Under the pieces are notes generated by a model that saw only the letters and a program-made list of their open reading frames with translations, was not told the origin of the DNA and did no database searches. From Clostridia bacterium (GTDB lineage: Bacteria > Bacillota > Clostridia > Christensenellales > UBA1242): DNA of 37,208 nt. The translations under genes were made by a program, and so were the position numbers. The stretch lies in assembly GCA_045588795.1 (NCBI GenBank), contig JAZNEY010000054.1, forward strand, positions 1 through 37,208, read 5' to 3'. Positions 2 through 18,617 of the stretch are shown piece by piece; within the stretch, counting starts at the first letter, position 1, and each line of letters starts with the position of its first letter.

Positions 2-3000
2 ACCTTTTCATCAGATTTTCTTGCAAAAGACTACGCTGGTCCAATCGTTGCAAGGGGCCTGTTTGCAAAGACTTCAATACTTCCACAAGAGACTCCTCAA
101 CCAACTGCAATCCGTGAACAACTTGTAGATGAAAGTGGTAACGAAGTTTCGGTATTTGACAGCGGTGATGCAATAAGTTTAAGGGTTGTCAATTACGACT
201 TCCCAAATTCAACTGTTCTTGATGGTGAGGCGTTATCAAATTATATTGGAATGACTCACGGAAGTGGGCTTGCATCAACGATTAAAAAAGATGGCGATAG
301 TGGTGCAACAGGTATTTTACAGGGTGCGCTAAATTACTTATATGTTCAAGGTGATGGTGTAAGCGGTGTTGGAAATTGTGATGAGGATAATGCGTGGGGC
401 AATCTTTACACAAATTCAAATATAAAGTACTACAATTTAAGTGGAGAGGCCGGCTCTCAAACGGTTACATTCTACGACAAAGATGGTTATGCAATGCCTT
501 GGGGTGGAGACTATGCAGATGTAACTAAAATGGTGGTTACCGAACACGCTCCTGTTAATCTTTATTACATTTACAACAAAGAGGGGTTGTATTTCCCAAT
601 AGTTTCCTATTCAGAACTCGATACAATGTCTTTGGCAGAACACTTAACTATGTTTATGACAAACATAACAAATGTTGAGGCTGTTGGAATTCTTGAAAAT
701 AGTTTGATAATTAGGTGCAAAGCAGATCTTATACAATTCAAGCCTGATGGTGCAGGAAATGGTTTTACAACTATTAGTATGCTTGTTGGTGCAAGGGTTG
801 ATGGAATTGCTCAAAATGGCTACAGCGATTTTGTAACAGCTGGCGTTTTTGAAATTCCAAAATTTTACAACATTATTGGCACAGTAGACACTTCTCCATT
901 TGATCCAGATGCTCCAGCGGTTAATTACGGTAAAAAACCTGGTGATAATGTATCATATATCGCAGACCCATACTCTTTTATGGGTGTTGGTTTTGTTAGC
1001 GTATATGGCACATATCTTGAAAACTTATATGTTAAAAATGGTGCAATTTATACGGGCAGTGGAAATACATTCCTTTCTATTAATGATTTAACTGAATTAT
1101 ATTATAATTATTCAATAGATTATATGAATCTTGAATCGAAGTTTGTCGCAAATATCCTTTATGAAATTCAAAGCGATAGCGGAAGTTTTTCGGGCGTATC
1201 TGCATATTACAAGAATTTGATTTTTGATAGCGGGGAAAGTTGGAGTATTGATACGACAACAGTTGATGTTTCTTCGCCTAGTGCTATTTACACTTATATA
1301 ACAAATGGGGCGGGAAGTGGTCATATTGCAACCTATCAACAAATTATTTATTCAATGCTTTATGGTCAAAATTTCTTGATTGGACTTGGGGCTTGTGTTC
1401 AACCGCTTGACCCAACACACTTTGGATATACACAAACTGGCGAAAATGTTGATGTTACTCTTTATTCTGCGGTCAACTCAGTTGTTGCAAGTGGTACACA
1501 AACTGATGCTGAAATTGCAGGTATAAGCACTGATGCCGGAGAGGGTAAAGATTATGGAAAGGTTTCAGTTGATGTTGAAGTTCCTATTAAGGTTGTAATG
1601 CGAAGCGGTAACAATAAATCAAGGGTTGAAGCCGTCCTTGTTAATGTAGATGAAACATCCGCCCCTGGTAAATATGAGGGACATGATGTTTACGATTATC
1701 TACTTATAATGAAACTAAACTTCACAAAGTGCGGTGGTTTTGCATTTGGTGCAAGTATTTCAAATGTTGTTTTGGAAGCACCTGATGGAATGGCTGAAAA
1801 AACATATATTGTTTTGAAAAATGGTGCACTTCATTGTCCAACTCTTGGAAAGTATATTTTAACAATTGATGCTATGAAACAAATTGCAATGACAGCGGGG
1901 GCAACAGAACTTGATGGGCTTGTTTATTCACAAATGTTTGATATGCATACAATCGCAGAAGCGGACAACAGATATATTTATTTTGAAAGAGCACAATTCT
2001 TGCTTAGCCCAATATTCGATTTTGCTTTCCACGCTAAGGATAATATCTTCAAAGGTATTGCAGTAAGGCTTGCTGTTGGATTTGTTAAAACATATGATGT
2101 TAATGTTTTATATAGGCTTGAAAATGGTGGATTCTTATTAAATTACAACTTCAATACAAGCACTGGTATTGCGGTTGGAAACCTATTTGATATGAGGTAC
2201 ATTAATCCAATTGTATTTATATTCGCAACAGCAATTATATTTGGTATGCTTTGGAATATGGTTTGGAACCTTATTACAAGAATATACGAAATTGGTATAA
2301 GATTTATAATCTTGCCGGCAGTTCTTTCTGTTGATGTTCTCTCAGATGGTAAGTTTAAGTCGTGGAAAGACGCTGTTATTGAAAAAATTATGGCGGCATA
2401 TTCAGTTCTTATAATGTTAAATCTGTATTTTGCATTGATACCATCAATTGAAGAGATTACAACGGGGTTAATTTCTTGGGAAGATCTTCCATCAACATTT
2501 ACTGGCTTATTTGCAAATATTGGAGCAACGGGTGGTGGCGGATTACTCGCAAGCATTGGACTTTCGGGTGGTATTAAGTCAATTATTCCAAAATTAATTG
2601 GTGCTTGGGAAATTTCAGAAACCTCAATAATCGTAATTACTGGCTGGCTTAACAAACTTATCTTTATGATGTTTTTGCTTGTTCTTACAACACTTGTAAA
2701 ACAAGGTCCAAAAATACTTGGTAAATTTACTGGCACAGAGGATGATATCGCAGATAATACAACAACCAAAAGAATTACTGATATGAAAGATGAGTATGAC
2801 AAATCTTTGGTTGGTACAGGTTTAAGAGAACTTGGAACAATGGGTACAAATCTTGCTGTAAAGGGTACAAGTGCTGCATTTAAAGGATTTTCAAATCTGC
2901 TTGGAAATAAGAGCACATCACAATCATTTAATGTTAGTACTTCACTTGGTGGTGGGCTATCTGGTGGTAGTTACTCATCAAGCAGTTTCACTTCACCTCG

Positions 3001-4069: not shown

Positions 4070-4151
4070 AAATTCTTGAGTCATTTGAGCAAAATCATAT
4101 CGAAAAGATGTGAAAACTAAAATTTAATTTAACTTACCTCCCTTTTTCGCT

Positions 4152-4202
4152 GGTGGGGCAAGGCGGTTAATGATTATCGCTTTAATCGCCTAACTCCCCT
4201 CC
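4152..4202 (+). promoter_or_regulatory. Candidate structured RNA element in the 205-nt gap between the first gene and the VirB4-like gene
   Basis: Inner stem 4162-4170 (ggcggttaa) pairs with 4182-4190 (ttaatcgcc): 9 bp including one G-U, with an 11-nt loop. It is enclosed by 4152-4158 (ggtgggg) paired with 4196-4202 (cccctcc), 6 of 7 positions. GC-rich relative to its surroundings. Confidence 0.35.
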
Positions 4203-4274
4203 ACTAAAATAGGGCAAGGTTAAGATTAAATAAAAAGTGGCGACTTTAAACGCATTTTAATAAGGAGAAAAATA

Positions 4275-7200
4275 ATGGCAAGATTAATTCCAAGAAAGAC
4301 CAAGGTCAAAATTCAATTTTATAAGAATTTTACATTAACTGACGTTTTAGTTCTTTTTGGCGTAGTTGTGCTTGTTGCACTTGCATTTTTAAGTGGGCTA
4401 ACATTTAGGCTTATACTTGCTGTAGTTATTGGACTTGCGGGCTTGAGTTTGTTTGTTTCTGTTGCACCTGAAACAAGATTATATCAGTCAATAGGGCATA
4501 CAGCAAGGTTCTTGTTTGCTAACAAAACTTATACAAAAACAGACCCAAAAGTTACAAAAAACATCAAACTTATAACACCTTTTGAGGGCTTTGTTGATTT
4601 TTCTATGCACGACGGTGCTAGTGAGTCTGATGATATAAGTTTTATTGACTATGGTAGCTACTATGCAACGGTTATTGAAATTAGACCAGTTCAATTCTAT
4701 ATGCTTAGTGAGCAAAGACAGAACCAGTTTATTACTGCTGTTGATAACGCACTTAAAACTATTGCAGGCGACCAAGTAGTTTCTATCGTTAAAACAGAAA
4801 AACCTTTGGTTCTTGACTCTTATCTTGAAAATGAAAAGAGAAAAGTTTCTGATATTATTGCTTCTGCTGAAAGAGGTGATATTTCGGAAGATGAGCTTGA
4901 CCCAAGACTTGATATTATTGAAAGTCGTATGATTGGTCTTGAAAATTGTAATGTCGGCTCACCAAACACTATTATGAAAGAGCATTACTACTTTATCATT
5001 TATGGTAACGGTAAAGAATCTCTTAAAAGTTCAGCAAACCTTGTTGTAACAACATTTGATGGTGGTACAAACGGTTCGCTTCAAGCAAAAATCCTTGATA
5101 AACAAGGACTTGCAATATTCTTGAAGAGTACCTATAATGACACCTTTGATGAAAGAGAGATTTATGCTCTTAAACCAGAAGAATATATGGATTGGGTTTT
5201 ACCTAACAAAATTTCGTTTAGCGGTCGTGGTTTTACAATTGATGGCGTTCCACAATCTTCATTGATTATCGCTGACTATCCACTTGCTGCTCGTAATGCT
5301 TGGGGTAACTATTTCTTTAATATTCCGGGCTCAAAAGTTATTGTTAAATTTAAAACTGTCGGTATTGATGAAGCGGAGCGAAGAATCGATAACTCTGTTA
5401 TGGAAATGGAAGCTCAATATATGAATGGTGGTAAATCATCTAAAATGCTTCAACTTCAAACCCACATTCAAACATTAAACGAACTTTTGGTTTCGCTTAA
5501 AAATGGTAACGAAGCATTCTTTGATACATCAATCACTATTATTTCAAAACAAGAAATCAAGAAAAATGTTAAAACTATGCTTCGTAGAGGTGGTTTCAAG
5601 TTCAACGACTTGTTCTGCTCGCAAATTGATGGTTTTATCTCTGGTAATATCAGCCGTAAGATGGTACTTGGTCAATATGATAGAGGTATTAACTCTTCTT
5701 CACTTGCTGCGATTTTCCCATTCGTTTCTGACTCTGTTCAAGATGAAAAGGGTTTCTTCATTGGATATAATACCGAGCCATTATTCATTGACTTTTTCAA
5801 GCGTGATAAAGAAAGAATTAACTCGAATATGGTTATTATCGGTAAGTCCGGTTCTGGTAAGTCTTATGCAACAAAAGGTATTCTTTCTCACCTTGCATCT
5901 GACAATAGTAAAATTTATATTCTTGACCCGGAAAAAGAGTATGACAACCTTGTGCATAACCTCGGCGGAAAACTTATTGACGTAGGTTCTGCTAAGATGG
6001 GTAGACTTAACCCATTCCAAGTATTTACTACTCTTGATGATGAGGGTGATGAGGGACAAAATACTTCGCTTGCAACTCACTTGCAGTTCCTTGAGCAATT
6101 CTTCAAAATAATTCTTGATGGTATTACGACTGATGCGCTTGAAATTTTGAACGACTGCGTTAAGCAGGTTTATGAAAAGTTCAATATTACAGCAAACACA
6201 GATATTCAAAAACTTGATGCAAAAGATTTCCCAATCTTCCAAGATGTTTATGATTTTATCAATCGTAAGTTTAAAGAGTCGAAAGATGATTTCTATAGAA
6301 ACAACCTCCGTGTTATTATCACTTACTTAAACAAGTTCGTTTCTGGTGGTAGAAACAGTATGCTTTGGAATGGTTACTCTTCAATCACCGCAGATGAAAA
6401 CTTTATCGACTTTAACTTCCAGTCGCTTCTTGCAAACAAAAACGGTGATATCGCCAACGCACAGATGCTTTTGGTACTTCGTTGGATTGATAACGAAATC
6501 ATTAAAAATAAAGACTATAACGCAAAATATAACACTAAAAGAAAAGTTATTGTTGCAATTGATGAGGCCCACGTGTTTATCGACCCTAAGAAAGACGTTG
6601 CGCTTGACTTTATGTATAACCTAGCAAAACGTATTCGTAAGTACGAGGGTATGCAAATTATTATTACACAGAACTTGAAAGACTTCGTTGGTACACCATC
6701 TATCGCTCGTAAATCTACTGCTATTATCAACGCTTCGCAATATTCATTCATCTTCTCGCTTGCTCCTCACGATATCAACGACCTTGTTGAACTTTATGAA
6801 AAGGCCGGAAGAATTAATGAGGCAGAGCAAGAAAGTATCGTTTCGAGCCCAAGAGGTCGTGCATTTATGATTACAGGACCTTATAGCAGAACTACTTGCG
6901 ATATTACTCTTTCAGAACTTGTTATTGCAACATTTGAAAAACCTGATATCAAGGCTTATAAGAAACAGCAAGAAGAACTTGCAAAACAAGCAGCTCAACC
7001 AGTTCCTGGTGTCGTTGAAGAGGCTATTGAAAATGGACCTCCGATGGAAGAAAGTATAACTCCTGTTGTAGTTCCTGAACTTCCTGTTGAAGAATCTGGA
7101 CTTCCAGTAGTTGAAGAAACAACACCAGTTGAGGAGATGGAAGAACTTACAACTGAGGCTGTAACTGAAAGTGCTGAGGTAAAGGAAGAGGCTCCAGCTG

Positions 7201-7745
7201 TTGAAGAAGATTCTATGGAAACTGAAGAAGAAACCTCTGCGGTTGAAGATGAGACTGAAAAACAAGATGAAGAAGTTGAAGCAGGATTTAAACCTGTAAG
7301 TGGTGGATTTACGCCAATCAATGGTGGATTTACGCCAATCAATGCTGGAACAAAACCGACATCATCTGGATTCACTCCGATAAGTGGTGGGTTTACTCCG
7401 GTAAAGGCGAGTCCAAAGCCTGCAACTGACGCTGATGGAAGTCAAGGATTTACACCAATCAACGCAGGACAAAGTGCAGGAAAATCTGGTGCTACTCCGG
7501 TAAGTGGCGGGTTTACTCCGGTAAAGGCAAGTCCAAAGCCAGCGCCAGCAGGATTTACCCCAGTAAAGGCGAGTCCAAAGCCAGCGCCAGCAGGATTTAC
7601 CCCAGTAAAGGCAAGTCCAAAGCCAGCGCCAGCGGGATTTACTCCGGTAAAGGCAAGTCCAAAGCCAGCACCAGCCGGCTTTAAACCAACTAACGAGGGT
7701 GGAAATGGCGGAAATTCTTCTTTTCCAAAACCACATAAGCCTTAA
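4275..7745 (+). CDS. VirB4/TraE/ConE-family type IV secretion ATPase with a fused VirB3/PrgI-like N-terminal two-TM segment and a ~250-aa low-complexity C-terminal tail
   Basis: AAGGAG SD at 4262-4267. Two N-terminal hydrophobic helices (VLVLFGVVVLVALAFL, LILAVVIGLAGLSLFV). Walker A MVIIGKSGSGKSYATK (nt ~5841-5864). Walker B KVIVAIDEAHVF (~6546-6572). RKYEGMQIIITQNLKDF is typical of VirB4-family C-terminal domains. Length and domain order fit VirB4. Confidence 0.85.
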   Translation: MARLIPRKTKVKIQFYKNFTLTDVLVLFGVVVLVALAFLSGLTFRLILAVVIGLAGLSLFVSVAPETRLYQSIGHTARFLFANKTYTKTDPKVTKNIKLITPFEGFVDFSMHDGASESDDISFIDYGSYYATVIEIRPVQFYMLSEQRQNQFITAVDNALKTIAGDQVVSIVKTEKPLVLDSYLENEKRKVSDIIASAERGDISEDELDPRLDIIESRMIGLENCNVGSPNTIMKEHYYFIIYGNGKESLKSSANLVVTTFDGGTNGSLQAKILDKQGLAIFLKSTYNDTFDEREIYALKPEEYMDWVLPNKISFSGRGFTIDGVPQSSLIIADYPLAARNAWGNYFFNIPGSKVIVKFKTVGIDEAERRIDNSVMEMEAQYMNGGKSSKMLQLQTHIQTLNELLVSLKNGNEAFFDTSITIISKQEIKKNVKTMLRRGGFKFNDLFCSQIDGFISGNISRKMVLGQYDRGINSSSLAAIFPFVSDSVQDEKGFFIGYNTEPLFIDFFKRDKERINSNMVIIGKSGSGKSYATKGILSHLASDNSKIYILDPEKEYDNLVHNLGGKLIDVGSAKMGRLNPFQVFTTLDDEGDEGQNTSLATHLQFLEQFFKIILDGITTDALEILNDCVKQVYEKFNITANTDIQKLDAKDFPIFQDVYDFINRKFKESKDDFYRNNLRVIITYLNKFVSGGRNSMLWNGYSSITADENFIDFNFQSLLANKNGDIANAQMLLVLRWIDNEIIKNKDYNAKYNTKRKVIVAIDEAHVFIDPKKDVALDFMYNLAKRIRKYEGMQIIITQNLKDFVGTPSIARKSTAIINASQYSFIFSLAPHDINDLVELYEKAGRINEAEQESIVSSPRGRAFMITGPYSRTTCDITLSELVIATFEKPDIKAYKKQQEELAKQAAQPVPGVVEEAIENGPPMEESITPVVVPELPVEESGLPVVEETTPVEEMEELTTEAVTESAEVKEEAPAVEEDSMETEEETSAVEDETEKQDEEVEAGFKPVSGGFTPINGGFTPINAGTKPTSSGFTPISGGFTPVKASPKPATDADGSQGFTPINAGQSAGKSGATPVSGGFTPVKASPKPAPAGFTPVKASPKPAPAGFTPVKASPKPAPAGFTPVKASPKPAPAGFKPTNEGGNGGNSSFPKPHKP
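7284..7700 (+). repeat. In-frame GF(T/K)P-motif low-complexity region of the VirB4-like tail, including four near-perfect 42-bp units (GFTPVKASPKPAPA) at 7509-7676
   Basis: Direct reading: unit boundaries at 7509, 7551, 7593 and 7635. About 12 GF[TK]P motifs in total. Confidence 0.9.
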
Positions 7746-7790
7746 AAATGGTGATTAAAAACTTTTAAATTTTAGAAGGACAAAAGATAT

Positions 7791-10700
7791 ATGCAAATGA
7801 TGGTTAACATTATTAAAAATATTTTTGGAGTAGGTGCACAAAAAATTTGTGCGTCTGCTCTTTGTTCTCCTCATTTGCAGAATGTTTTGTCTGTTCTTTG
7901 TGAAGCAAGTACAGTAACAGTTGCAACTAATTCTATAATCAATGCATTTACTTCTATAATCGAGGGGCTTGCGGGAATTGTTATTGCTTGGTTCTTCTTA
8001 ATATCTAAATTCGTGTTCCAAATCGTTGACTTGATTCAATATTTAGTTTACAAACTTGCAGGTATTAATTTATCTTCTGAAATCACATTTGATTTGCCTA
8101 TTTTCAAAATTTTACTTTCAGATACAATTCTTGACCTATTTATGGCACTTTTCATTATTGGTTTGATTTTGCTTATCATTTTCACAATTATTGCTATTGT
8201 AAAATCTGAGTATGAAATTGCAATTGGTCTTGAACAAGATTCAAAGAAAGTAAAAAGAGCATCTGCTAAAATTGTTAAGTCAACACTTACTTCAACCGCA
8301 CTAATGCTTATAATTCCTTTCATTATGATTGCGGTTATGGCTTTTGGGTCGGTATTCTTAACCAGTATTAACTCGGTGTTAAACCCAGATGGTACTTCAA
8401 GCACAACTCTTGGAGGACAGGTCTTTGTGGCTTCTGCTCATAAGGCTAACAAATATCGAATCTACGCCGAGAAGAATGAGAGAATTCCAATCCTTTATGA
8501 CTTCGTTGACCCATACGACAATGGCACCGCTTATCTTTATACAAGAGATGAACTTGCAAATGAGTATGGTGCTTGGAATAGCGGTGAATCATATTACGCA
8601 AACCAAACTAATGGAGGGTATGCTTCGTTTGCCTCAACTTTGGTCTATAAGAACAACAAACTTTATAATAAACAAGATAACTATGGCGGATATGAAAAAT
8701 GGGTTTCAACACCTGAACAATATTACATTATGGCTGATTTTATTGATTATGCTGTAAAGAACAATCTTGAATTTTATATTAAAAATGCATCTGGTGAGGA
8801 TATTGATTGGGATAATAGTTCAAGTAATGTTAAAATCACTGATGGGGTATTCAATCCTGCAACCGGTACATTCACTCTAAGTTATGTCGATAACTCTAAT
8901 GTCAATAAATATGATGATAGTTATACTTTGACTTTGGAAACGGGTGAGTTTATTGCTTCTAGTCCTATTGCTGACACTACAAAGACTATCGCTGAACTCC
9001 TTGCAATTACAATGAATGAGGATATGGAGAGCACGGTAGACTCAAAACTATTCAGAATGCTTGAAAGGGTTGAGGGTAGCACAAATGTTGTAAAATGGAA
9101 AACTGAAAGCATTGACTACAACAAAGAAACATACACTGTTTATGAACTTACAAAAAGATATTATAATGTAACTACTGGTATGCTTGAGTCAAGGGCGACT
9201 GTTCCTGTCGCAAGAAAACAACCTGCTGGTGCTTATTATATTCTAAACAAAGATGAAGATGGTAAATATCATTATACAAACCAAGTAATTGAATATCATA
9301 ACAATGGTAAACTTTATCAAGATTTGATTGAGCCAGTTTATGTTTATGGCAACTGGCCGGAAAAATTGTATAATGACTTAAAAGTAATATTTGCTGATAT
9401 TAATATTGATAATTATATTAACTATGATAACTGGGCTGATATGCTTGGTGAATATTACGCCTCTGATTTGAATTTTGAAAATGGTGAAACCGTTTCATTT
9501 GCAACTACTTTAATTCACCCTCTTGGACTTATTATGTCAGAACTTTTCCTTGGCGTTACATTTGAGGAAGAGGGGCAGTTGACCGACTTCACATTTACTA
9601 CCCAATATATGAAAGATGTTATTCAGTCGATTTGTTTTGCGGTTGGGGGAGAAGAAGATTATTGGCAACTAAAATGTGAAATAGACTCTTTTGTTACAAT
9701 GTTCAATGGCTTGTTTACACCAATAATTGAAGAATTGCAAAAAATTGAAGGCTTTGACCTTTATGATGAAGATGAATATTCTGTTCAAGCCTATGTTTAT
9801 AAATCTTATCTTGCAAGCGTTATGCTTTCAGATAGTGCTAATGAATTTTTTGAAACTCTCGGCTACGAAATTTTGAATCTTAACAATTTGGCTGCGGTTA
9901 TTCATAATAGCAGTTCAAACAATTTATACAACTCGAATGGCGAGTTGATGTATGAAATTAAGTACAAAACTGATGATGATGGAAATTATTTAAAATTGCA
10001 ATTTTTGCCAAAGAATCCAGACTCTTACACCCGTGGTGCTATCGGTAAATATGTTTATAATGTAAGTGGCGCAAAAGCTGTTGTCTGTGATGAGAATGGA
10101 TATATTAGCGACACATCAAAATATGTTCCTGTTGGTGGTGTGTATGATATGTTCACTAGACTTAACGAGGATAATGGACACTATGAAATTTGGTATGGCT
10201 TAAGATTCTATGATGTAAATGAATATAATGAATACTACAGAGAACAACTAGACAAACACCCAAACAATGACATACCAACTTGGGAAGAGTTGTTTGCTCG
10301 TTATTTCACAACATATTATAAGGCTGGTTATGACCACGACAGAACATTCACTTATAATAATGAAACATATTCAATAGTCTGCGACACAAATGGAAACATC
10401 AAATTTATAAACAATGGCGGAAATCTTAGAATGATTAATTTGCCAACCGCAAGTGATGACTATGGTTTATATTTTGTTCCAAAAGAAGATACAGATTTTA
10501 TTGTTGAAAATGTTGGTGATACATTAAAATATAAGGTTCTTGTAGAAAATAAATATGTTACAGCTGACAAGGTTAATTTTGAAGATTATTTCGAACCTGC
10601 AAAAGTTAGACTTTATGTTTATGATAATGTAGAAAAAGCAAATCCAAATTCAAAAATAGGCCCTACACCTGCAAGTGATATTATCTTAAAGGGTGATGAT

Positions 10701-13700
10701 GAGGCTGAGGTTGATGAGATTTTAAGTTTTGCTATTGATTATTCTATTAAACTAGATACAGGACTTGGCAAATATGTCGTTCAAAACGAAGATATTATCA
10801 ATTGGCAAATAGATTTTCTATCACAAGATTATTACCTTTATGAAAAAGAATATATAGCAATTACCGAGCAAGTTTATCTAACTTATGATAATTTGCCACA
10901 AGAAAGCAAAGATTTGATTGATGGTGCTATTGATTATCTCTATAAGGTTTCTGAGCACGACACCGACCAAAGGAATGAAACTTTCTTACCGTACCTTGAA
11001 ATTTATAAAGCTGGAAGAGTTTATTTATCTGTTGATAAGAATGTCTATATTGAAGTTGAAGATATATTAAACGCTCCTATGATATCTAGTTACAAGGCTC
11101 TTGAGTTTGAGAAAAAATCGTTAAATGATTACGTTGATTACATAGTGGAAAATCAAAACAAGTCAACTAGAAGAGTCTATAAAGACAAATATCAAGAAAT
11201 TTGTAGCTATTATAAATATAACATTGTAAAATCTATTCAAGAGTATATGTCTTACAGAATTTCAACTGGGTATGAAGTTATTGTAAATGGTCAAAAGTTT
11301 ACAATTGAACAGGCTATGTCATCTACTGAATTTATGGAAATTGTCTTTGGAAACAATTTGACATATGATGGTCTCGTTGAGCAGTTATCTAGAGGCGTTC
11401 TACTTGATGATTTGACCAAGTTTAATAAATCTGCTATGACACTTATGTCATCACACTTGCAGGCTGATTTGAAAGAATTGCAAAGTGTTATTGATAAACT
11501 CGAAAGATATTTAATTGTGAATAAAGCGGCGTATAATTCTTCATCTGCTCCTGTAAGTCTTTCACTTACTGACCGTGAACTTGAAATTATTAATACTTTC
11601 TATAAAGTTAAAACAGGTGATGAACTTAATATTAACCTCAAAGGACTTTCAAAATATTTGCAATATGCAACTATTCCAACCCCAGCAGGTAAAGAACCAT
11701 CATTCAACTCTACAATGTATCAAAAAATCATTGATGTTTTGAAAATTTGTCAAGATGACCTTGGTATAATTATTCAAAGATATATGCAAGGCGATAACGA
11801 TATTTGCTCTACAACAGATTGTTCGACAAACATTGAAGCCTGCGTGCTTTTGAGTAGGTATGTTAGAACTATTGCTGATATCACAGAACTATCTTACGTT
11901 GACCAAAATTATAGCGGAATTATAGACAGCAACGGAACTTGGGGGATTCTTCGTGATTTCTTAAAAGATTTTGGTAGTCTTTGCTTTGATTTACAAACAA
12001 AATCTAACTTCAACTCTCTTTCTTATGGACAAAAAGATGAGGAAAGTTTAGTTGGTGCAAATACAACTTACATCTCTGAACTTCTCGATATGTTGAATGG
12101 TATGCTAATAGAGGTCGATTTTGGAAGTGAGGGCAAATCAATTACTGAAGTTGCGGGAATTGAAGATTTGATTGTCTTTGTGTATGATGAAGATGAAGAA
12201 GAATACATCTACACTGAATTAACTGGTGATAATTATTACTCTGAACTTATAAGTGAATCAAAATATTATATCGCTATTCTTTGTGATTATTTCGAAAAAA
12301 CCACAGAAGAATATCGCCAAATTATTGCAAACTCGCAAGAGGCTTACAATATGATGGTTAAATTTATGAATGGTAGATATACTATGCAACCTAATTCGCT
12401 TATATTTACAACATTTATAAAAGATTATATTGAATACTTTAAATACAATGCTGACACAACAGATGATTCATTCCTTGAATATATGTATGATGAATATTAT
12501 ATTGAGGTTGATAATAATCTCATGGGCGGAAATAATGAATTGTCTAATTCAGACAAATTGAGTTATTACTTTATGTATATGGAATCTTTTGACAACTTTA
12601 AATTTGCGAATAATGGAAATTATTATTCAGATTTGTCAACCATACAACAAAAGGTAGTTCAAGATGCAGTTAAGTATTACAAACAAATTAAAGATGAGAC
12701 TGAAACAACTCTTTCTGAGGACCTTGAGTACAGTTTAGAATGTTTAGAGAAATTAAATAGTTTTGTGTTTGGAGTTGGCGGAGAAAATCCAGAAAATGCT
12801 GGAGACGCTGAGATTGCTGATATACTTGAAAGCAATCTTGATATTATAAACCTTTATAATGTTCTTGATTTTATGGGGCTTGAGTTTGAGGTAGATAAAA
12901 ATTTAAGAGATTACAGAATTGATGCATTTAATCAACTAGTCGAATTTAGTGAGTATAGCGGTGAGAGTGTGGCTTCAATTCAAAGCAGATATCTTTCACT
13001 TTTGTATCTTGCTTGTTCAGACTTTACACTAAACCCTGAGGGTGCTTCTTATGTTGGTTTTGATGATAATTCAAAACAGATACTATTAAGTCTTGCTGGT
13101 GTTGCAAACAAGGCTGATGAACTTCTGGTTGATTTGCAATATGAGGGTAACTATTCTAGTTCGGTCGCTGATGAAAAATATGGAAGCATATTTATTATAT
13201 GTACTTACAATGAGTCAACTAAAAAATATGAGCCATTTATTTTTGCTTCGGAGCCTGACAAATATAATACTCCTGTTACAAATTATTACAGGTCTGTAAA
13301 CAACCAAGTTACATATTATCCAGTTATTGCAAAGGGAATTTTTGATGCATACGGAAATCCAACTGCAATTCGTGAGGTAAATGGAAATATTGAATTTTAC
13401 CGTGAGGAAGTTACAAGATTTAACCTTGCAACCATTTCTATGGACTTTTACACGGTTACACAAGAAGATGTTTCAACTAACTATGGTGTTGTGGGTAAGA
13501 TTGTTAACTCAATTAAGCAAACAATTAACAGATTTTTAGTTGCCGACTCTCTTGGTGATAGTTTTGAATATCTTGACACTGACCTTGAACCAGATATTTA
13601 TTATGGCACTAAAACAACTTGCATTTATCACCTTGATAGTGGATATGCAAACTTGAACTATATGTTCTATGAAAAGACAGGAATTGGTGTTACTTATCTT

Positions 13701-14666
13701 TATGATATTACACAACTAAACATTATTATTTTAGTTTTGGCTTCGGCTGTTATTTTGGACGCTATGTGGAAAGTGTTCTACGGAATAGTTAGTTCAATTT
13801 TCCAAATTGCTATTCTGTTTGCGATTTCTCCTGTTATTGTTGGGGTTAAACCTGTTAAGCCAGACGCCTATAAAAATTGGAAGAAAAATTTTGTTAAACA
13901 ATTCTTTGTGATGTATGGCTTTATTGTCGCTTTGAATTCTTACTTCATACTATTGATATTGATTGACAAGATGGGGTCGCTCATACCGGCATATAGCGAG
14001 AGAAGTATTTCAATATTGAATGATACAGCACTATTTAGTGGGCTTGATGTTCTAACTATAGTTTCTGTTCTTCTTTCAACTGCGGTCTTGATTGTTGCAA
14101 CTACGCTTCTAAAGAGTATGACAGATACATTCTCTGGAACATTATTTAGTGGTGATGATGCCATGAAGTCCGGCGCAAAAGTCAAGGGGCAAACAGAGGC
14201 TGTCGTTGCAGAGGGCGAATACTTTATGAGTGGATACCTTGCAAAAGACTCTATGGCAAAAGCGTACAGAGATGCTACAAGTTCGTTTGCACCACTGCTT
14301 GGACCTGATGCAATTAGAGAACGCATGAACGAGAGAGAGGCAGAAAAGAACAAGAAACTTGCAAAACAATACGAACAAGACTTAATTTCTCAAGGTGTTG
14401 ATTCTGCTAAGGCTTCTGACGCTGCTAAGGCTTACAGAGATGCTCTTAACGCTAATATTAAGGCTAGAAATGAACACGTTAAACAAGAAAATGACAGAAG
14501 AAAGAAGAGACTTGATGATCATAATAAGCGTATGACTCAATTCGTTCAACCTCCATCTGATCCAAAAGAAGTTAAATGTAAACATTGCGGAGCGAAGTTC
14601 AAAAAGAGTCAAGTTAAAGGCACTAATAAGTGTCCAATTTGTCAACAAAAGAATGCTTTTAAATAA
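7791..14666 (+). CDS. Giant (2291 aa) polytopic membrane protein in the VirB6/ConG/Orf15 gene position: N-terminal TM bundle, ~1700-aa Tyr/Asn/Asp/Glu-rich central domain, C-terminal TM bundle, Lys/Ala-rich tail ending in a zinc ribbon
   Basis: Uninterrupted 6.9-kb ORF; GAAGGA lies 10 nt upstream of the ATG. Hydrophobic helices at aa ~55-200 and ~1935-2110. CKHCG..17..CPICQ at nt 14577-14645. Immediately downstream of the VirB4-like gene. Confidence 0.85.
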   Translation: MQMMVNIIKNIFGVGAQKICASALCSPHLQNVLSVLCEASTVTVATNSIINAFTSIIEGLAGIVIAWFFLISKFVFQIVDLIQYLVYKLAGINLSSEITFDLPIFKILLSDTILDLFMALFIIGLILLIIFTIIAIVKSEYEIAIGLEQDSKKVKRASAKIVKSTLTSTALMLIIPFIMIAVMAFGSVFLTSINSVLNPDGTSSTTLGGQVFVASAHKANKYRIYAEKNERIPILYDFVDPYDNGTAYLYTRDELANEYGAWNSGESYYANQTNGGYASFASTLVYKNNKLYNKQDNYGGYEKWVSTPEQYYIMADFIDYAVKNNLEFYIKNASGEDIDWDNSSSNVKITDGVFNPATGTFTLSYVDNSNVNKYDDSYTLTLETGEFIASSPIADTTKTIAELLAITMNEDMESTVDSKLFRMLERVEGSTNVVKWKTESIDYNKETYTVYELTKRYYNVTTGMLESRATVPVARKQPAGAYYILNKDEDGKYHYTNQVIEYHNNGKLYQDLIEPVYVYGNWPEKLYNDLKVIFADINIDNYINYDNWADMLGEYYASDLNFENGETVSFATTLIHPLGLIMSELFLGVTFEEEGQLTDFTFTTQYMKDVIQSICFAVGGEEDYWQLKCEIDSFVTMFNGLFTPIIEELQKIEGFDLYDEDEYSVQAYVYKSYLASVMLSDSANEFFETLGYEILNLNNLAAVIHNSSSNNLYNSNGELMYEIKYKTDDDGNYLKLQFLPKNPDSYTRGAIGKYVYNVSGAKAVVCDENGYISDTSKYVPVGGVYDMFTRLNEDNGHYEIWYGLRFYDVNEYNEYYREQLDKHPNNDIPTWEELFARYFTTYYKAGYDHDRTFTYNNETYSIVCDTNGNIKFINNGGNLRMINLPTASDDYGLYFVPKEDTDFIVENVGDTLKYKVLVENKYVTADKVNFEDYFEPAKVRLYVYDNVEKANPNSKIGPTPASDIILKGDDEAEVDEILSFAIDYSIKLDTGLGKYVVQNEDIINWQIDFLSQDYYLYEKEYIAITEQVYLTYDNLPQESKDLIDGAIDYLYKVSEHDTDQRNETFLPYLEIYKAGRVYLSVDKNVYIEVEDILNAPMISSYKALEFEKKSLNDYVDYIVENQNKSTRRVYKDKYQEICSYYKYNIVKSIQEYMSYRISTGYEVIVNGQKFTIEQAMSSTEFMEIVFGNNLTYDGLVEQLSRGVLLDDLTKFNKSAMTLMSSHLQADLKELQSVIDKLERYLIVNKAAYNSSSAPVSLSLTDRELEIINTFYKVKTGDELNINLKGLSKYLQYATIPTPAGKEPSFNSTMYQKIIDVLKICQDDLGIIIQRYMQGDNDICSTTDCSTNIEACVLLSRYVRTIADITELSYVDQNYSGIIDSNGTWGILRDFLKDFGSLCFDLQTKSNFNSLSYGQKDEESLVGANTTYISELLDMLNGMLIEVDFGSEGKSITEVAGIEDLIVFVYDEDEEEYIYTELTGDNYYSELISESKYYIAILCDYFEKTTEEYRQIIANSQEAYNMMVKFMNGRYTMQPNSLIFTTFIKDYIEYFKYNADTTDDSFLEYMYDEYYIEVDNNLMGGNNELSNSDKLSYYFMYMESFDNFKFANNGNYYSDLSTIQQKVVQDAVKYYKQIKDETETTLSEDLEYSLECLEKLNSFVFGVGGENPENAGDAEIADILESNLDIINLYNVLDFMGLEFEVDKNLRDYRIDAFNQLVEFSEYSGESVASIQSRYLSLLYLACSDFTLNPEGASYVGFDDNSKQILLSLAGVANKADELLVDLQYEGNYSSSVADEKYGSIFIICTYNESTKKYEPFIFASEPDKYNTPVTNYYRSVNNQVTYYPVIAKGIFDAYGNPTAIREVNGNIEFYREEVTRFNLATISMDFYTVTQEDVSTNYGVVGKIVNSIKQTINRFLVADSLGDSFEYLDTDLEPDIYYGTKTTCIYHLDSGYANLNYMFYEKTGIGVTYLYDITQLNIIILVLASAVILDAMWKVFYGIVSSIFQIAILFAISPVIVGVKPVKPDAYKNWKKNFVKQFFVMYGFIVALNSYFILLILIDKMGSLIPAYSERSISILNDTALFSGLDVLTIVSVLLSTAVLIVATTLLKSMTDTFSGTLFSGDDAMKSGAKVKGQTEAVVAEGEYFMSGYLAKDSMAKAYRDATSSFAPLLGPDAIRERMNEREAEKNKKLAKQYEQDLISQGVDSAKASDAAKAYRDALNANIKARNEHVKQENDRRKKRLDDHNKRMTQFVQPPSDPKEVKCKHCGAKFKKSQVKGTNKCPICQQKNAFK

Positions 14667-14687
14667 TAAAAATTTATTGGTGAGTCT

Positions 14688-17522
14688 ATGAATTTAGTTA
14701 AATTTATGAACAATTTAATATTTAAAATCAACAGCCAGCACCTGCTTAAAAATGGTGCTGGCAAGGCTCAACGAACGCTTTTTAATGGAACGGGCGGAGA
14801 GACTCCAACCTTTCTTTCGGTTCTTATTGAGGGATTCATTGGAAGAATTACCGACATTGCTAATTACCTTATAAGAATAGTTTTCCAATTGCTTTATTTT
14901 GTTATTAAACTTGCACTTAACATTATGGACTTTTTGATGGTTATTGTTTCAGAACTATCGGGGCAGGCACAGGCTTTTGATATGGCAAAAGCAAATAGTA
15001 ACCTTGAAAGTTCAGATATTATTTTCAGATTTTTCTTAAATTCTGTTACTATGAAAATTTTAAAACGAGTATTTATTTTCTCGATTTTAGTATTAATTCT
15101 TGTTTCTATCATTGCTATTGTCAAAAATGAATGGCAAAGGGCTACTGATGATAAAGCAAGAGACGCAAAAGTTATTATCGTTAAATCTTTGAAAAGTTTA
15201 TTGATGATGTTTATTACGCCATTCGTTGTTATTGTTGGAATTATTTTCTCTAATGTTGTTTTAACTTCGGCAATTAACTCATTGAATGGTGGAAAAAGTT
15301 TCTTTAGTTTAGGCTCGGTTGTGTTTATGTCTAGTACATATAATGCAAACTGGTATCGAATATATGCTGACAATAATGATAAAATCCCAATATTGTTTGA
15401 TTACAATGGTGGATTTTACAATGCAGATAATGGTGATATTGATTTTGCTGGTGGGCAGTTTAATCTTGATGACCAAATGGCGGAGCTTAGAGCAAATGAG
15501 TATCTGACAAGTGGTTATAGTACATACTCAATGTTTAAAAATCAAGCATACTTTGAGTTTGACCAAGTTCCTGAAAATAGCACTTATTATTCTTTCTATG
15601 ATGGGGAACATTTGAAAACCAGCAGAATTGAATATTATGTTATGGCTGATTTTATTGACTATGCTATGGAAACCGGTCAAGAGTTCTATATTAAAAATGT
15701 CGAAGATGTATTTAATATAGCATATGATGCTTGTGAAGAGGCTCTCGATAATGGACTTGAACTTTATCCTTACGTTGAGGGCGGAAAAGCATCTCTTCAA
15801 ATTGATGAAGATTTTGAGATTTATTATTACAGGCTTGCTCAAATATTTAACAATATTGTTCCATATGAAAGGCTAGATGGGTCTGATGGACTTGTTGCCA
15901 AATCAATATTTAAAAATATTGATGATGAAATGGTACTTGACTTTGAAGATGACAATATTGAAAGTTATAAATTCAATGTTTATTATGATGGCTATCTATT
16001 AAATTCGTGCGGGGATATGGGAACTATTGAGCCTGAGGTCGTTGAGGGACCTGGTGGTGAGCAGGTTACAGTTTACCCTGAGACAGCAGTAACTTATGAG
16101 GCCTTTTCTGGCGCTGATGATGAGGCGTATGGGGCAAAATACGTCTATTGCTACAAAATGTCTATTCCTTTAAATGAGGACCAAACGCAATTTACAACAA
16201 TATTTGTTCCGGTTTTCCAAAACTCTAATAACAATAGTTATTTTAAGTTTAATAGTGATTACTTGTCTGATGCAAGTGAGGATAGACCATATGAATCAAT
16301 GTTTCTTGCAAGGGGCGGTTTTGATACAACTGGCTTTCCAACAGCAATTAAATCATATGGAAACGATATTGTCTTTTATAGACACGACTGCGATAGTGTA
16401 GGATTGTTCAAGGCAAAACCTCAACTTAGTTATGTTCAGACTGATGAGAATACTGGGAATCAAGAAGTTATTGAGGCTGAGGGCGATTTCTTTTCAAGAG
16501 TCCTTGGTTTTGACCAAGACAATGTGAGGCTTGCACTTGACATTAAAATGGACACAATGCCAACATTTACAAAAACGGTTTTTGATGTTACAACTTTTGA
16601 TGATGGTCTTTATAAATTGAATTATAGTTTTGTCGGGACAAATTTGAGGCTTGCTAATGTCTATGATACATTAAACATAAATTTTGCAATCTTAACATTT
16701 GCAAGTTGGAAGATGATGAGTACATTTTTCTTCTTGATATTTGCTCTTTTGAGACGACTTCTTGAACTCACTGTTTTCTGGTTTACTTATCCTGCTTGGC
16801 TTGCATCATTCCCGCTTGATTCAAATGATAATATCACAGAGGGTACAACCTTTGCTATGTGGAGGTCTAACTTCATTGATAGGGTGCTTGCAGTCTATAC
16901 AACATATATCGGACTGGTGCTATTCTTCGTGCTTGTGCCGGTTATTGTAGGTATTGATTTTGCAGTTACTATTGTTGGTTCAATAAGTCCTGAAAGTTGG
17001 CTTGCATATATTCCTCCAACATTTATTGCTTGGGTGATTAGAACAATGTTTGTTCTTGTATTATTCACTATGGTTGAAAGAATTAATGAAATCATTAACG
17101 ACCTTGTTGGTGGTGGAAGATTATCTAATTTTGATGCTTCCGGAAAAGATACCTTTGATGATTCTATTAAAACTGTTAAACTCGGCTATTCAACATTTAG
17201 TATAAGAGAAAACTTTAAAAAGGCAAAGGGAGCAGTTGCTGACGGTGTCCAAACTGGTTTGAATTTGATACCGGGTAAGGCGTTTATAGATGAGGGGGCA
17301 ACTGCTGTTCGACATATTTCAAATAATTCTAAACACGCAAAAGCAGTTAAGGCACTCGTATCAACTTCATTATCTGGTGCAACTGACGCAAAAACGGAAA
17401 TTGCAAAGGCTGGATTTGAAAAACTTACAAAAAGACATTCTGATGGAAATCCTAAAAAAGATGAAAGTGCTGGATTCAAAAATATTGAAGAACGCGCAAG
17501 CAAGAGTGGCAGAATTGTTTAG
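14688..17522 (+). CDS. 944-aa polytopic membrane protein, shorter paralogue of the 2291-aa protein
   Basis: Starts 21 nt after the previous stop. Blocks shared with the 2291-aa protein include IAIVKNEW/IAIVKSEY and NANWYRIYADNNDKIPILFDY vs HKANKYRIYAEKNERIPILYDF. Also shared are YYVMADFIDYAMETGQEFYIKN vs YYIMADFIDYAVKNNLEFYIKN, plus the C-terminal TM module. Confidence 0.85.
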   Translation: MNLVKFMNNLIFKINSQHLLKNGAGKAQRTLFNGTGGETPTFLSVLIEGFIGRITDIANYLIRIVFQLLYFVIKLALNIMDFLMVIVSELSGQAQAFDMAKANSNLESSDIIFRFFLNSVTMKILKRVFIFSILVLILVSIIAIVKNEWQRATDDKARDAKVIIVKSLKSLLMMFITPFVVIVGIIFSNVVLTSAINSLNGGKSFFSLGSVVFMSSTYNANWYRIYADNNDKIPILFDYNGGFYNADNGDIDFAGGQFNLDDQMAELRANEYLTSGYSTYSMFKNQAYFEFDQVPENSTYYSFYDGEHLKTSRIEYYVMADFIDYAMETGQEFYIKNVEDVFNIAYDACEEALDNGLELYPYVEGGKASLQIDEDFEIYYYRLAQIFNNIVPYERLDGSDGLVAKSIFKNIDDEMVLDFEDDNIESYKFNVYYDGYLLNSCGDMGTIEPEVVEGPGGEQVTVYPETAVTYEAFSGADDEAYGAKYVYCYKMSIPLNEDQTQFTTIFVPVFQNSNNNSYFKFNSDYLSDASEDRPYESMFLARGGFDTTGFPTAIKSYGNDIVFYRHDCDSVGLFKAKPQLSYVQTDENTGNQEVIEAEGDFFSRVLGFDQDNVRLALDIKMDTMPTFTKTVFDVTTFDDGLYKLNYSFVGTNLRLANVYDTLNINFAILTFASWKMMSTFFFLIFALLRRLLELTVFWFTYPAWLASFPLDSNDNITEGTTFAMWRSNFIDRVLAVYTTYIGLVLFFVLVPVIVGIDFAVTIVGSISPESWLAYIPPTFIAWVIRTMFVLVLFTMVERINEIINDLVGGGRLSNFDASGKDTFDDSIKTVKLGYSTFSIRENFKKAKGAVADGVQTGLNLIPGKAFIDEGATAVRHISNNSKHAKAVKALVSTSLSGATDAKTEIAKAGFEKLTKRHSDGNPKKDESAGFKNIEERASKSGRIV

Positions 17523-17537
17523 TAAAATTAAGATAAT

Positions 17538-17569
17538 AAAAGAACAAGTCAACTTGACTTGTTCTTTTG
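17538..17569. terminator. Bidirectional intrinsic terminator between the convergent 944-aa gene and fba
   Basis: aaaagaacaagtcaacttgacttgttctttt: near-perfect palindrome flanked by an A-run and a T-run. Confidence 0.8.
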
Positions 17570-17673: not shown

Positions 17674-18582
17674 CTACTTTCTAAATAACGACATACATTC
17701 TTTTACATATTCAGTTATGTTTTTGCTTGCGTATCCAAGTATCTTTCTTGGGTCAAAGACTTCTGGATTGTTTGTTGTAAATTCACGGATTGAGCCAGCA
17801 AAACATAATCTTAAATCTGTGTCGCAATTGATTTTTACAATTGGAGTTTCTGTTGCCATTTTTTGAATGGCTTTTGCTGGAATTCCTTGTGCCTTGTTAA
17901 TTACGCCACCATAGGCTTTAAATCTGTCAACAAGTTTCTTATCGACTCTGCTCGCTCCGTGACATACAAGAGGGAAATTTGGAAGCGTTTTATCAAGTTC
18001 TTCTAGGATATCAAATCTGATTTGTGGCTCGGTTGTTCCCTTGTTTGCTCCGTGTGCTGTTCCTATGCTTACAGCAAGGCAGGTAATACCAGTTTTTTCA
18101 ACAAACTCTTTCGCCATCATTGGGTCTGTAAAGTGTGAGACCTCACTTGATTGTTCATCTTCAACACCAACAATTTCGCCAAGTTCACTTTCAACTGATA
18201 CATTTTTCTTCTTTGCGTATTCAACAACTTCTTTCGTGCCTTTGATATTCTCTTCAAAAGGTAAGTGGCTTAGGTCAATCATTACAGAAGAAAAACCTGC
18301 GTCAATCGCTTTTTTACAAACTTCAATATTTTTTCCGTGGTCAAGGTGAAGTGCTATTTTTGATGGACTCTTTTCGGCTAGAGTTTTAACAATTGCAACC
18401 AGTTCATCAAACCCTGCGTATTTACAAGCAGATTCGCTTGCTTGTAAAATTACTGGAGTGTTCATCTCTTCGCTTGCCTTTATTATCGCTTGTGCAAATT
18501 CAAGATTTGAGATGTTAAACGCTCCTATTGCATAGCCATTTTTTCTTGCATCATTTAACATTTCGGTCATATTACAATACAT
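17674..18582 (-). CDS. fba: Class II fructose-1,6-bisphosphate aldolase
   Basis: NGYAIGAFNISNLE, LHLDHG, AVSIGTAHG and VCHGASR motifs. I chose the start at MYCNMTEML (ATG at 18582), 9 nt downstream of AGGAG, rather than the ORF-track start at 18615. Confidence 0.9.
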   Translation of the reverse strand: MYCNMTEMLNDARKNGYAIGAFNISNLEFAQAIIKASEEMNTPVILQASESACKYAGFDELVAIVKTLAEKSPSKIALHLDHGKNIEVCKKAIDAGFSSVMIDLSHLPFEENIKGTKEVVEYAKKKNVSVESELGEIVGVEDEQSSEVSHFTDPMMAKEFVEKTGITCLAVSIGTAHGANKGTTEPQIRFDILEELDKTLPNFPLVCHGASRVDKKLVDRFKAYGGVINKAQGIPAKAIQKMATETPIVKINCDTDLRLCFAGSIREFTTNNPEVFDPRKILGYASKNITEYVKECMSLFRK

Positions 18583-18617
18583 AAAAATTACTCTCCTAAA
18601 ATTTAATTTATACAATT

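Follow-up and report, generated by a model that had tools for sequence, protein, structure and literature searches.

The closest described relatives of the locus reported here are the minimal conjugation modules of Mycoplasma and Spiroplasma integrative and conjugative elements (ICEs) and plasmids, namely CDS15-CDS16-CDS17 with CDS5 of ICEA from M. agalactiae and the MMCAP2_0565/0566 genes, which form the only set of homologues detectable by sequence. CDS15, CDS16 and CDS17 are all needed for ICEA transfer (PMC6030558; PMC12857230), and CDS16 is regarded as a likely VirB6-like component (PMC12857230). The locus itself lies at 2-17522, with all genes on the + strand, in a 37,208-nucleotide (nt) stretch of DNA from a Christensenellales-type Clostridia bacterium (the forward strand of contig JAZNEY010000054.1, assembly GCA_045588795.1), which we call the window. 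It consists of a gene for a VirB4-family ATPase (g2), preceded by one gene (g1) and followed by two genes (g3 and g4) for giant paralogous membrane proteins. The window is likely to cover two thirds, the distal part, of a chromosomal type IV secretion system (T4SS) locus measuring roughly 25-30 kb. This system is probably a domesticated monoderm T4SS, i.e., a VirD4-coupled, contact-dependent translocator in which an apparatus of plasmid/ICE type has been kept for host use.

Like the clostridial locus, the Mycoplasma module has the gene order small pilin-like protein, polytopic membrane protein, VirB4, includes VirD4, and is devoid of VirB8-like and hydrolase genes (PMC12857230). In contrast, the Mycoplasma systems are mobile (with a DDE transposase or plasmid-borne), reside in wall-less hosts using genetic code 4, and have a single CDS16 of about 300-350 amino acids (aa), whereas the clostridial locus is chromosome-fixed in a walled host and has three paralogues that range from 944 to more than 2291 aa.

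Other systems are comparable in lifestyle or parts. The chromosomal T4SS of Patescibacteria (Candidate Phyla Radiation; Southlakia epibionticum; Wang 2023; PMC12102498) is likewise found in monoderms, lineage-wide and mostly without a relaxase; it derives from MPF_FATA, has PF18895 VirB2-like pilins and is thought to have been co-opted from conjugation (PMC12102498). Those loci differ in having VirB1-, VirB3-, VirB6- and VirB8-like parts, arrays of six pilins and ultrasmall epibiont hosts. Giant triplicated VirB6-like proteins are unreported for them, and the likeness is one of lifestyle and parts. The archaeal Ced/Ted systems are also chromosomal, domesticated conjugation machinery with a VirB2-like pilin, a VirB6-like channel and a VirB4-like ATPase, relaxase-less and conserved across an order (PMC9905601). 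They differ in being archaeal and importing DNA, have no detectable sequence similarity to our locus, and have no giant ectodomains described.

The earlier note on this DNA had compared it with the Rickettsiales rvh system and with ConG/Orf15 proteins, and both comparisons turn out to be analogies. The rvh T4SS is likewise chromosomal and inherited vertically, and it has several VirB6-type proteins that are encoded in tandem and greatly enlarged; however, it is a diderm MPF_T system with VirB7-11, and its VirB6 proteins are enlarged by hydrophilic extensions and not by insertion between membrane halves. As no sequence relationship was detected, we treat rvh as an analogue and not as a homologue. 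The VirB6-like proteins of Gram-positive systems (ICEBs1 ConG, Tn916 Orf15, pCW3 TcpH and pLS20 p028) are similarly polytopic and encoded beside VirB4, but those systems are mobile and also encode relaxases, hydrolases and VirB8-like proteins. The pLS20_p028 profile is matched weakly but significantly by short relatives of the giants (33-48 bits, E 1e-8 to 1e-13), far short of its cut-off of 150 bits. The homology that can be detected is with the Mbov_0396/MMCAP2_0566 family. Literature searches on T4SS of Christensenellales and Christensenellaceae returned nothing relevant, and no description of this clostridial system was found.

The VirB4-family ATPase

Over aa 5-881, the g2 product matches the NCBIfam model NF045975 (VirB4_plasma, the Mbov_0397 family ICE element conjugal transfer ATPase) at 573.9 bits, below the curated equivalog cut-off of 590 bits. 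By this measure it is a close outgroup of the VirB4 equivalog of Mollicutes ICEs and not that equivalog itself. Other NCBIfam matches are CD1110 (1.2e-45), TraC (4e-34) and TIGR00929 (VirB4/CagE; 2.4e-20). In Pfam, P-loop_TraG is matched at 75 bits, above its cut-off, while FtsK_SpoIIIE reaches only E 0.01. The sole match among PDB sequences is 4AG5, the C-terminal domain of Thermoanaerobacter VirB4 (E 5e-48). On the strength of the VirB4-specific profiles and the 4AG5 match, we reject a HerA/FtsK-type identity, which the earlier note had named as an outcome fatal to its proposal; its assignment to the VirB4 family, made from the GKSGSGKS and AIDEAH motifs, is borne out. The N-terminus has a basic stretch followed by a hydrophobic segment of 53 residues (aa 15-67) interrupted by an Arg, which fits the two transmembrane helices proposed before and is compatible with a two-helix hairpin of the kind found in VirB3-like fusions.

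Other T4SS parts surround g2, with CDS16-like genes on both sides in the window and VirD4 and pilin genes upstream in relatives. The exact window VirB4 sequence is not indexed, and its wider context is taken from relatives: metagenome assemblies encode more than 400 VirB4 homologues, with identities of 54-93 % among the best 120 clusters listed. Identity to Spiroplasma VirB4 is 26-30 %, and the best plasmid matches are from Spiroplasma and Bacillus, both monoderms. At 1156 aa, the window protein has a longer tail than its relatives (about 890-970 aa in total). Downstream of an acidic stretch, this tail is encoded in part by 4.1 copies of a 42-nt unit (7512-7683; 92 % matches), which code for GFTPVKASPKPAPA repeats. 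Further repeat sites in the tail are at 7061-7105 and 7284-7349.

The upstream half of the locus in relatives

The earlier note had described the module as stripped down to one ATPase and had found no VirD4. The absence of VirD4 holds literally for the window; it does not hold for the system, as VirD4 is directly upstream in every close relative whose DNA extends that far. Since VirD4 lies just beyond the corresponding edge in these relatives, its absence from the window is attributable to an edge effect. For instance, locus L001 (a 309-kb contig; VirB4 82 % identical) encodes a 989-aa protein and VirD4, both on the - strand, then two proteins of about 112 aa, a 1989-aa giant, VirB4, a 2175-aa giant, a 944-aa protein and fba on the - strand, i.e., the window layout plus the missing part. 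The reconstructed locus would thus have a surface protein and VirD4 on one strand and, divergent from these, the pilins, giant 1, VirB4, giant 2 and the third paralogue, so that "stripped-down" is no fitting description of it.

The small proteins of about 112 aa match Pfam T4SS_pilin (PF18895) at 27-33 bits versus a cut-off of 26.6, and also NF045849, the Mbov_0395 family of pilin-like conjugal transfer proteins. The VirD4 proteins of the relatives are full-length with all three Pfam domains, and match NF045973 (CD1115 family) at 283 bits versus a cut-off of 250. Judged by sequence features, the VirD4 neighbour (about 750-1000 aa) combines a signal peptide with a beta-rich ectodomain and a C-terminal anchor. 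Neighbours of 985 and 747 aa matched no family in Pfam or NCBIfam and are not recognisable as relaxases. Pfam scans of the window and of the relatives' upstream proteins found no VirB8-like or hydrolase families in the cluster.

Three giant paralogues with inserts between two membrane halves

The products of g1, g3 and g4 are certainly paralogous as judged by pairwise BLASTP (g3-g4 2e-33 and 4e-11; g1-g3 5e-19; g1-g4 1e-12). The earlier note had recognised a shared C-terminal membrane module, and the strings it quoted are indeed present in the translations. This account of the architecture was nevertheless incomplete, as the proteins are enlarged by insertion between two membrane halves and by a long tail. 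Besides the C-terminal module, g3 and g4 have an N-terminal membrane module and stretches of the insert in common. The N-terminal module is missing from g1 owing to the window edge; it is present in the L001 orthologue, and g1 orthologues (1862-2854 aa) carry both membrane halves.

The family was identified with two NCBIfam models of about 310 residues that derive from proteins of Mycoplasma ICEs, NF045848 (MMCAP2_0566 family) and NF045889 (Mbov_0396 family). The g3 product scores 85.3 bits (cut-off 90) and 66.6 bits (cut-off 70), respectively, with each match split into an N-half and a C-half. The g4 product matches at 1.6e-17 and 6.5e-9, and the g1 product at 7.7e-13 and 2.1e-10 over aa 707-915, where a profile of the C-half also matches. 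Together, the three giants score 48.4-85.3 bits against NF045848 and 35.7-66.6 bits against NF045889, with a best E of 5e-24. The first half of the model aligns at about residues 60-250 of g3 and g4, and the second half 400-1700 residues later. The giants are in this respect unlike the contiguous CDS16 of about 310 aa, in that inserts of about 400-1700 aa split the profile and the gene occurs in three copies, one upstream and two downstream of VirB4.

When half-module profiles were run against 88 related loci, 78 two-half proteins were recovered, ranging from 387 to 2854 aa and with 7-1708 residues between the halves. Short relatives (444-771 aa) from the same VirB4 tree pass the curated cut-offs, with 125-258 bits versus 90 and 68-120 versus 70. 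Additionally, a membrane-only profile of the g4/g3 type aligned by hhalign to an Mbov_0396-family protein encoded on a Spiroplasma poulsonii plasmid (87.5 % probability, E 3.6e-6), where the gene order is membrane protein, small open reading frame (ORF), VirB4, VirD4-like. From the split profile matches, the short relatives above the cut-offs and the hhalign match to the Spiroplasma member, the giants are best described as homologous but divergent, insertion-bearing members of the Mbov_0396/MMCAP2_0566 (CDS16) family.

They occupy a VirB6-like position, as the earlier note had said, and a kinship to VirB6 is plausible but unproven at the level of predicted structure. A membrane-only AlphaFold model, made from an alignment of full-length rows, has a predicted local distance difference test score (pLDDT) of 62. 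Among 350,000 chains searched with this model in Foldseek, DotA ranked 2nd (E 0.21, probability 0.66) and R388 TrwI/VirB6 ranked 5th and 12th (E 0.6, probability 0.57, TM-score 0.40). A search of PDB sequences with a profile of the short family members gave noise only.

A hydropathy scan together with the positive-inside rule predicts three helices, a large external insert, three further helices and a cytoplasmic tail. The AlphaFold model of g4 has an ectodomain of mixed alpha/beta structure with pLDDT 80-92. When the full-length g4 model was compared to the PDB by Foldseek, there was no match at E <= 0.001, the best being phage portal proteins at probability 0.1. As g3 and g4 are similar at both ends of the insert, the inserts would be built around one ectodomain core, which measures about 400 aa in g4 and is enlarged further in g1 and g3. 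The tails differ between positions. Across orthologues, the first paralogue (position p-1, g1) ends in a charged coiled coil of 440-1830 aa, and the paralogue at p+1 (g3) in a strongly basic tail of about 165 aa. In g3 this basic tail closes with a zinc ribbon (CxxC-x14-CxxC; weak zinc-ribbon Pfam matches), which among the p+1 orthologues is found just in the window, L001 and L009.

In L023, L025 and L026, a sub-branch of the giant clade, the downstream paralogue reaches about 3310 aa, and the upstream proteins of 1692-2513 aa and about 780 aa no longer match the CDS16-like half profiles, which suggests further divergence or replacement.

Chromosomal site and inheritance

In a scan of one genome per species, at least 497 stretches encoded a relative, and the best 80 were all from uncultured gut or rumen Clostridia. 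Genomes of the clade are labelled Clostridia or Clostridiales in the record titles, and more distant ones Christensenella, Catabacter and Ca. Caccopulliclostridium. ORF maps show one common architecture in the 19 species representatives whose VirB4 is at least 50 % identical, namely pilins, then VirB4 between an upstream giant of 1860-2850 aa and a downstream giant of 1970-3310 aa, and a third paralogue of 810-1260 aa, followed by fba or gapA where the relative's locus extends that far. This giant clade is monophyletic in a VirB4 distance tree.

The position is constant across genomes whose VirB4 is as low as 55 % identical. The fba junction is identical in L001, L011, L017 and L021 and is also seen in distant loci. 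Outward from VirD4 at the other end, L004, L090 and L092 have the surface protein, gpr, rpsT, holA and comEC, while L007 and L008 have murI, recG and rpsT. Within about 10 kb per side in the relatives, Pfam searches detected no recombinase or relaxase families on either side of the cluster, and no complete conjugation gene set, another outcome that the earlier note had named as fatal, lies upstream. In the window itself, domain scans with Pfam and NCBIfam found no relaxase or integrase domain in any protein, and base composition has no break across the fba junction. The earlier note had also reasoned that a missing hydrolase would fit a wall-less or thin-walled host. This does not hold, as the window genes are read in the standard code, with in-frame TGA no problem, and the cluster in relatives has gpr, encoding the spore germination protease, and murI as neighbours.

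Across 12 loci, VirB4 and the adjacent fba are correlated in pairwise identity with a Pearson coefficient of 0.91; for VirB4 and VirD4 the coefficient is 0.97. Between the window and L001, VirB4 is conserved more than fba (80 % vs 59 %) and less than gapA. The ectodomain-bearing proteins diverge much faster: for the same pair, their best tblastn segments have 31-43 % identity, compared with 82 % for VirB4. In a tree, the paralogues cluster by position and not by genome, so that the triplication is older than the clade, and all three copies have been retained intact.

As would be expected of a host-fixed T4SS, the locus keeps a constant site, is syntenic across 19 or more genomes of species level and not just in sporadic strains, diverges together with host genes and has no relaxase nearby. 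The third outcome that the earlier note had named as fatal, a membrane module unrelated to VirB6/ConG-like proteins in combination with a sporadic distribution, did not arise either. These observations support the view that the cluster is a chromosomal, vertically inherited machine and not an ordinary ICE, and the idea of a domesticated machine in a housekeeping context, which the earlier note had raised, is upheld by both synteny and co-divergence.

In L091 (a JGI contig), positions 9048-14174 hold VirD4, a 611-aa neighbour and two small ORFs at the rpsT/murI/holA/comEC site, and where the giants and VirB4 would be expected, proS and other genes follow instead. This shows that a split of the locus can occur, here apparently through a rearrangement.

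Proposed mechanism and alternatives

In the mechanism that we propose, the three paralogues would form a hetero-oligomeric membrane channel or platform, with ectodomains of 400-1700 aa that would cross the wall, form an exposed and fast-evolving contact surface and stand in for the missing VirB8-like and hydrolase parts. The pilins would assemble on this platform in the way that VirB2 assembles on VirB6 in the R388 structure. VirB4 would dock via its hairpin and power both assembly and translocation, and VirD4 would recruit a cytoplasmic substrate to be pushed out to, or into, a contacted cell. The data show homology, architecture, synteny, co-divergence and a lack of mobility genes beside the cluster; we infer the topology, the assembly of a channel and, indeed, that anything is transported at all.

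The substrate may well be DNA, in the form of kin-to-kin transfer of chromosomal DNA or of mobilisable elements, which would make the locus a counterpart of archaeal Ced/Ted or of Mycoplasma chromosomal transfer. The conjugative ancestry and the basic channel tail with its zinc ribbon point in this direction, as does the fact that nearly all known monoderm T4SS transport DNA (PMC12857230). The substrate could possibly consist of protein effectors; the absence of a relaxase would suggest either these or an unconventional route for DNA, and the same argument has been used for Patescibacteria (PMC12102498) and Ced/Ted (PMC9905601). That it is something else altogether seems unlikely.

Several points weigh against the proposal of a domesticated, VirD4-coupled translocator. 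A walled cell without a dedicated hydrolase or VirB8-like scaffold is left unexplained by it. The giants fall slightly under the curated NCBIfam cut-offs (70 and 90 bits), and a Pfam scan of g1, g3 and g4 returned no family at E <= 1, including TrbL/VirB6 (PF04610), one of the profiles that the earlier note had proposed to search. In a Foldseek comparison of the membrane module, which it had also suggested, DotA and R388 VirB6 ranked high, but no match of the membrane-only model reached E <= 0.001, and those two matches are suggestive only and non-significant (E 0.2-0.6). The topology of the giants comes from a crude hydropathy scan, and a wall-spanning or adhesive role for an ectodomain whose fold is unrecognised is a guess. 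The upstream part of the locus (VirD4 and pilins) is assigned to the window from relatives at 70-83 % VirB4 identity. The flanks were inspected for about 10 kb on each side, and a relaxase could be encoded elsewhere in the genome. Lastly, co-divergence with an adjacent gene would also be expected if the whole segment had moved; the flanks, however, are single-copy housekeeping genes.

Of the alternatives, the one that fares best, although we consider it improbable, is surface display or adhesion, in which the ATPases merely insert, assemble or extend the giants and pilins and nothing is translocated. It would accommodate the huge ectodomains and their rapid evolution (31-43 % identity at 80-82 % for VirB4), the separately encoded large surface protein and the VirB2-like pilins, and VirB4 is the pilus-assembly ATPase in Gram-negative systems. 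It sits less well with a full-length VirD4 with three Pfam domains that is conserved and co-diverges with VirB4 (r = 0.97); to our knowledge, coupling proteins are known solely as substrate receptors.

A machine for DNA uptake (competence) of the Helicobacter ComB or archaeal Ced/Ted kind is quite improbable. The minimal set of pilin, VirB6-like protein and VirB4, chromosomal and relaxase-less as in Ced/Ted (PMC9905601), would suit such a role, as would the basic paralogue tail with its zinc ribbon. ComB, however, has no coupling protein, whereas VirD4 is kept here, the relatives also encode the usual ComEC uptake channel, and the direction of transport is unreadable from sequence. The retention of VirD4 thus makes both a purely adhesive role and a ComB-like uptake role less favoured.

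The reading as an ordinary ICE or integrated plasmid, with relaxase, integrase and att sites beyond the window, appears largely refuted, and we regard it as very unlikely. The nearest described relatives of every component are indeed ICE or plasmid proteins, this T4SS type is carried by true ICEs in related genomes, and VirD4 is retained. Against this, housekeeping genes abut both ends in relatives (gpr-rpsT-holA-comEC and fba-gapA) with no recombinase or relaxase, the position is constant at VirB4 identities down to 55 %, VirB4 and fba co-diverge, and there is no compositional break. A decaying ICE relic, trapped in the chromosome and now functionless, would account for the absence of relaxase, integrase, hydrolase and VirB8-like genes and for the reduction of other lineages as far as an orphan VirB4, but is hardly credible when about 19 species, at 31-38 % G+C, have intact frames of 900-3300 codons, VirB4 and VirD4 are conserved at housekeeping level, and each of the three paralogues has been kept since before the radiation.

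Mobile cousins, orphan VirB4 genes and origin

The VirB4 clade neighbouring that of the giants contains L047, L046 and L059, which have the same T4SS type with a CDS16-like protein of 306-467 aa. L047 (2-22422) encodes VirD4, a pilin, VirB4, a CDS16-like protein of 467 aa, another protein of 1486 aa and a BspA-type leucine-rich repeat protein. Pfam searches also identified in it a MobL relaxase, a Toprim primase, a C5 DNA methylase and a large serine recombinase. By this gene content L047 is a genuine ICE with this T4SS type; L046 and L059, of the same type, have phmmer homologues of some of its relaxase, primase, methylase and recombinase genes. The metagenome-assembled genome that contains L047 (CALWEA01) also holds a second, different VirB4 locus, L060.

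A third VirB4 clade includes two kinds of loci. The first consists of clusters adjacent to fba or gapA with a single CDS16-like gene of 770-1500 aa, and the second of an orphan VirB4 with fba on one side and, on the other, the rplQ end of the ribosomal operon. For instance, L039 (9998-12670; also L030, L043, L071, L087, L033 and L061) has an orphan VirB4 of about 890 aa, 45-47 % identical to that of the window, which follows secY-adk-map-rpsD-rpoA-rplQ, precedes fba and hflX, and is flanked by soluble Lys-rich proteins of about 221 aa and about 575-670 aa. No CDS16-like gene, pilin or VirD4 was found within 10 kb of the orphan VirB4. The flanking proteins of L039-type loci (x221 and x575) were rejected as CDS16-like, relaxed hidden Markov model searches being negative.

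The clostridial apparatus would belong to the same lineage as the minimal Mycoplasma/Spiroplasma conjugation module, with its pilin (Mbov_0395), Mbov_0396 (CDS16) and VirB4 (Mbov_0397, CDS17). The simplest history is one in which an ICE-type apparatus was captured at this site and its mobility genes were lost, with expansion in one lineage and reduction in another. Within the giant clade, the relaxase and recombinase would have gone and the CDS16-like gene would have been triplicated before the radiation, each copy then gaining a large extracytoplasmic domain between the third and fourth membrane helices and a long cytoplasmic tail. The direction of events (one or more captures, or re-mobilisation) would follow from the rooting of the tree.

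Significance

The cited literature states that VirB2-type pilins in monoderms are known from Patescibacteria alone, and the locus would extend them to abundant uncultured gut Clostridia, as a conjugation-derived machine with pilin genes that has stayed at a single chromosomal site over deep divergence and with no relaxase close by. It also offers walled-cell relatives of, and a plausible source lineage for, the minimal Mycoplasma ICE apparatus. Taken together, the VirB6-like proteins form a series from 306 aa to more than 3,000 aa that reveals insertion-tolerant sites and would be useful for structural work on monoderm T4SS. The locus is, moreover, a concrete candidate for mediating exchange between cells of a gut lineage whose relatives include Christensenella-labelled genomes, and Christensenella has reported associations with host health.

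More tentatively, this could be the first host-fixed T4SS of walled Bacillota: an order-scale, vertically inherited and relaxase-less system with pilins and three giants, serving the cell's own traffic with other cells (kin DNA exchange, or contact and feeding between partners) and comparable to the essential T4SS of Patescibacteria or to Ced/Ted. It might then also mark the Clostridial lineage behind the minimal Mycoplasma ICE apparatus.

Features of the window

The coordinates of the locus and its downstream boundary are collected in Table 1. The earlier description of four co-directional genes, separated by gaps of 205 (g1-g2), 45 (g2-g3) and 21 nt (g3-g4) and ending at a hairpin terminator against fba, is confirmed. 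The hairpin is the downstream boundary of the module, and the 205-nt gap between g1 and g2 was scanned and has no terminator-like site.

Table 1. Positions of the T4SS-type genes, their parts and the adjoining terminator and fba gene in the window.
Feature	Position (nt)	Strand	Description
Gene 1 (g1, position p-1)	2-4069	+	at least 1355 aa; 5' end beyond window start
g1, predicted ectodomain	2-2104	+	
g1, C-terminal membrane half	2105-2746	+	aa 702-915
g1, tail		+	440 aa; acidic coiled coil
Gene 2 (g2), VirB4-family ATPase	4275-7745	+	1156 aa
g2, basic N-terminus and putative two-helix hairpin	4317-4475	+	hairpin aa 15-67
g2, Walker A GKSGSGKS	5841-5864	+	aa 523-530
g2, Walker B AIDEAH	6555-6572	+	aa 761-766
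g2, tail		+	after aa ~885; acidic, then Pro/Lys-rich
g2, tandem repeat in tail	7512-7683	+	42 nt x 4.1
Gene 3 (g3, position p+1), giant CDS16-like/VirB6-like protein	7791-14666	+	2291 aa
g3, N-terminal membrane half	7947-8498	+	aa 53-236
g3, predicted ectodomain	8499-13619	+	~1700 aa
g3, C-terminal membrane half	13620-14159	+	aa 1944-2123
g3, tail		+	168 aa; strongly basic
g3, zinc ribbon in tail	14577-14642	+	CxxC...CxxC
Gene 4 (g4, position p+2), smallest paralogue	14688-17522	+	944 aa
g4, N-terminal membrane half	14847-15398	+	aa 54-237
g4, predicted ectodomain	15399-16586	+	~400 aa
g4, C-terminal membrane half	16587-17117	+	aa 634-810
g4, tail		+	134 aa
Hairpin terminator	17537-17569	both	14-15 paired bases, T-runs on each strand; serves the T4SS operon (+) and fba (-)
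fba, class II fructose/ketose-bisphosphate aldolase	17674-18615	-	TIGR00167 273.5 bits, above cut-off

A tRNA scan of the window found none, and an Rfam scan of the whole window at gathering thresholds returned no family, with no T-box upstream of trpS or proS (22900-24950) either. No tRNA, relaxase, integrase, VirB8-like or hydrolase gene was thus detected in the window, just as the earlier note had stated. Beyond fba, it contains gapA, mnmA, trpS, proS, two ABC exporters and a few uncharacterised genes. Between proS and a gene of the Exo_endo_phos family, at 26522-29050, are two adjacent paralogous proteins of about 395 aa with HTH_16/HTH_10 domains and a weak match to sigma-70 (extracytoplasmic function, ECF) factors.

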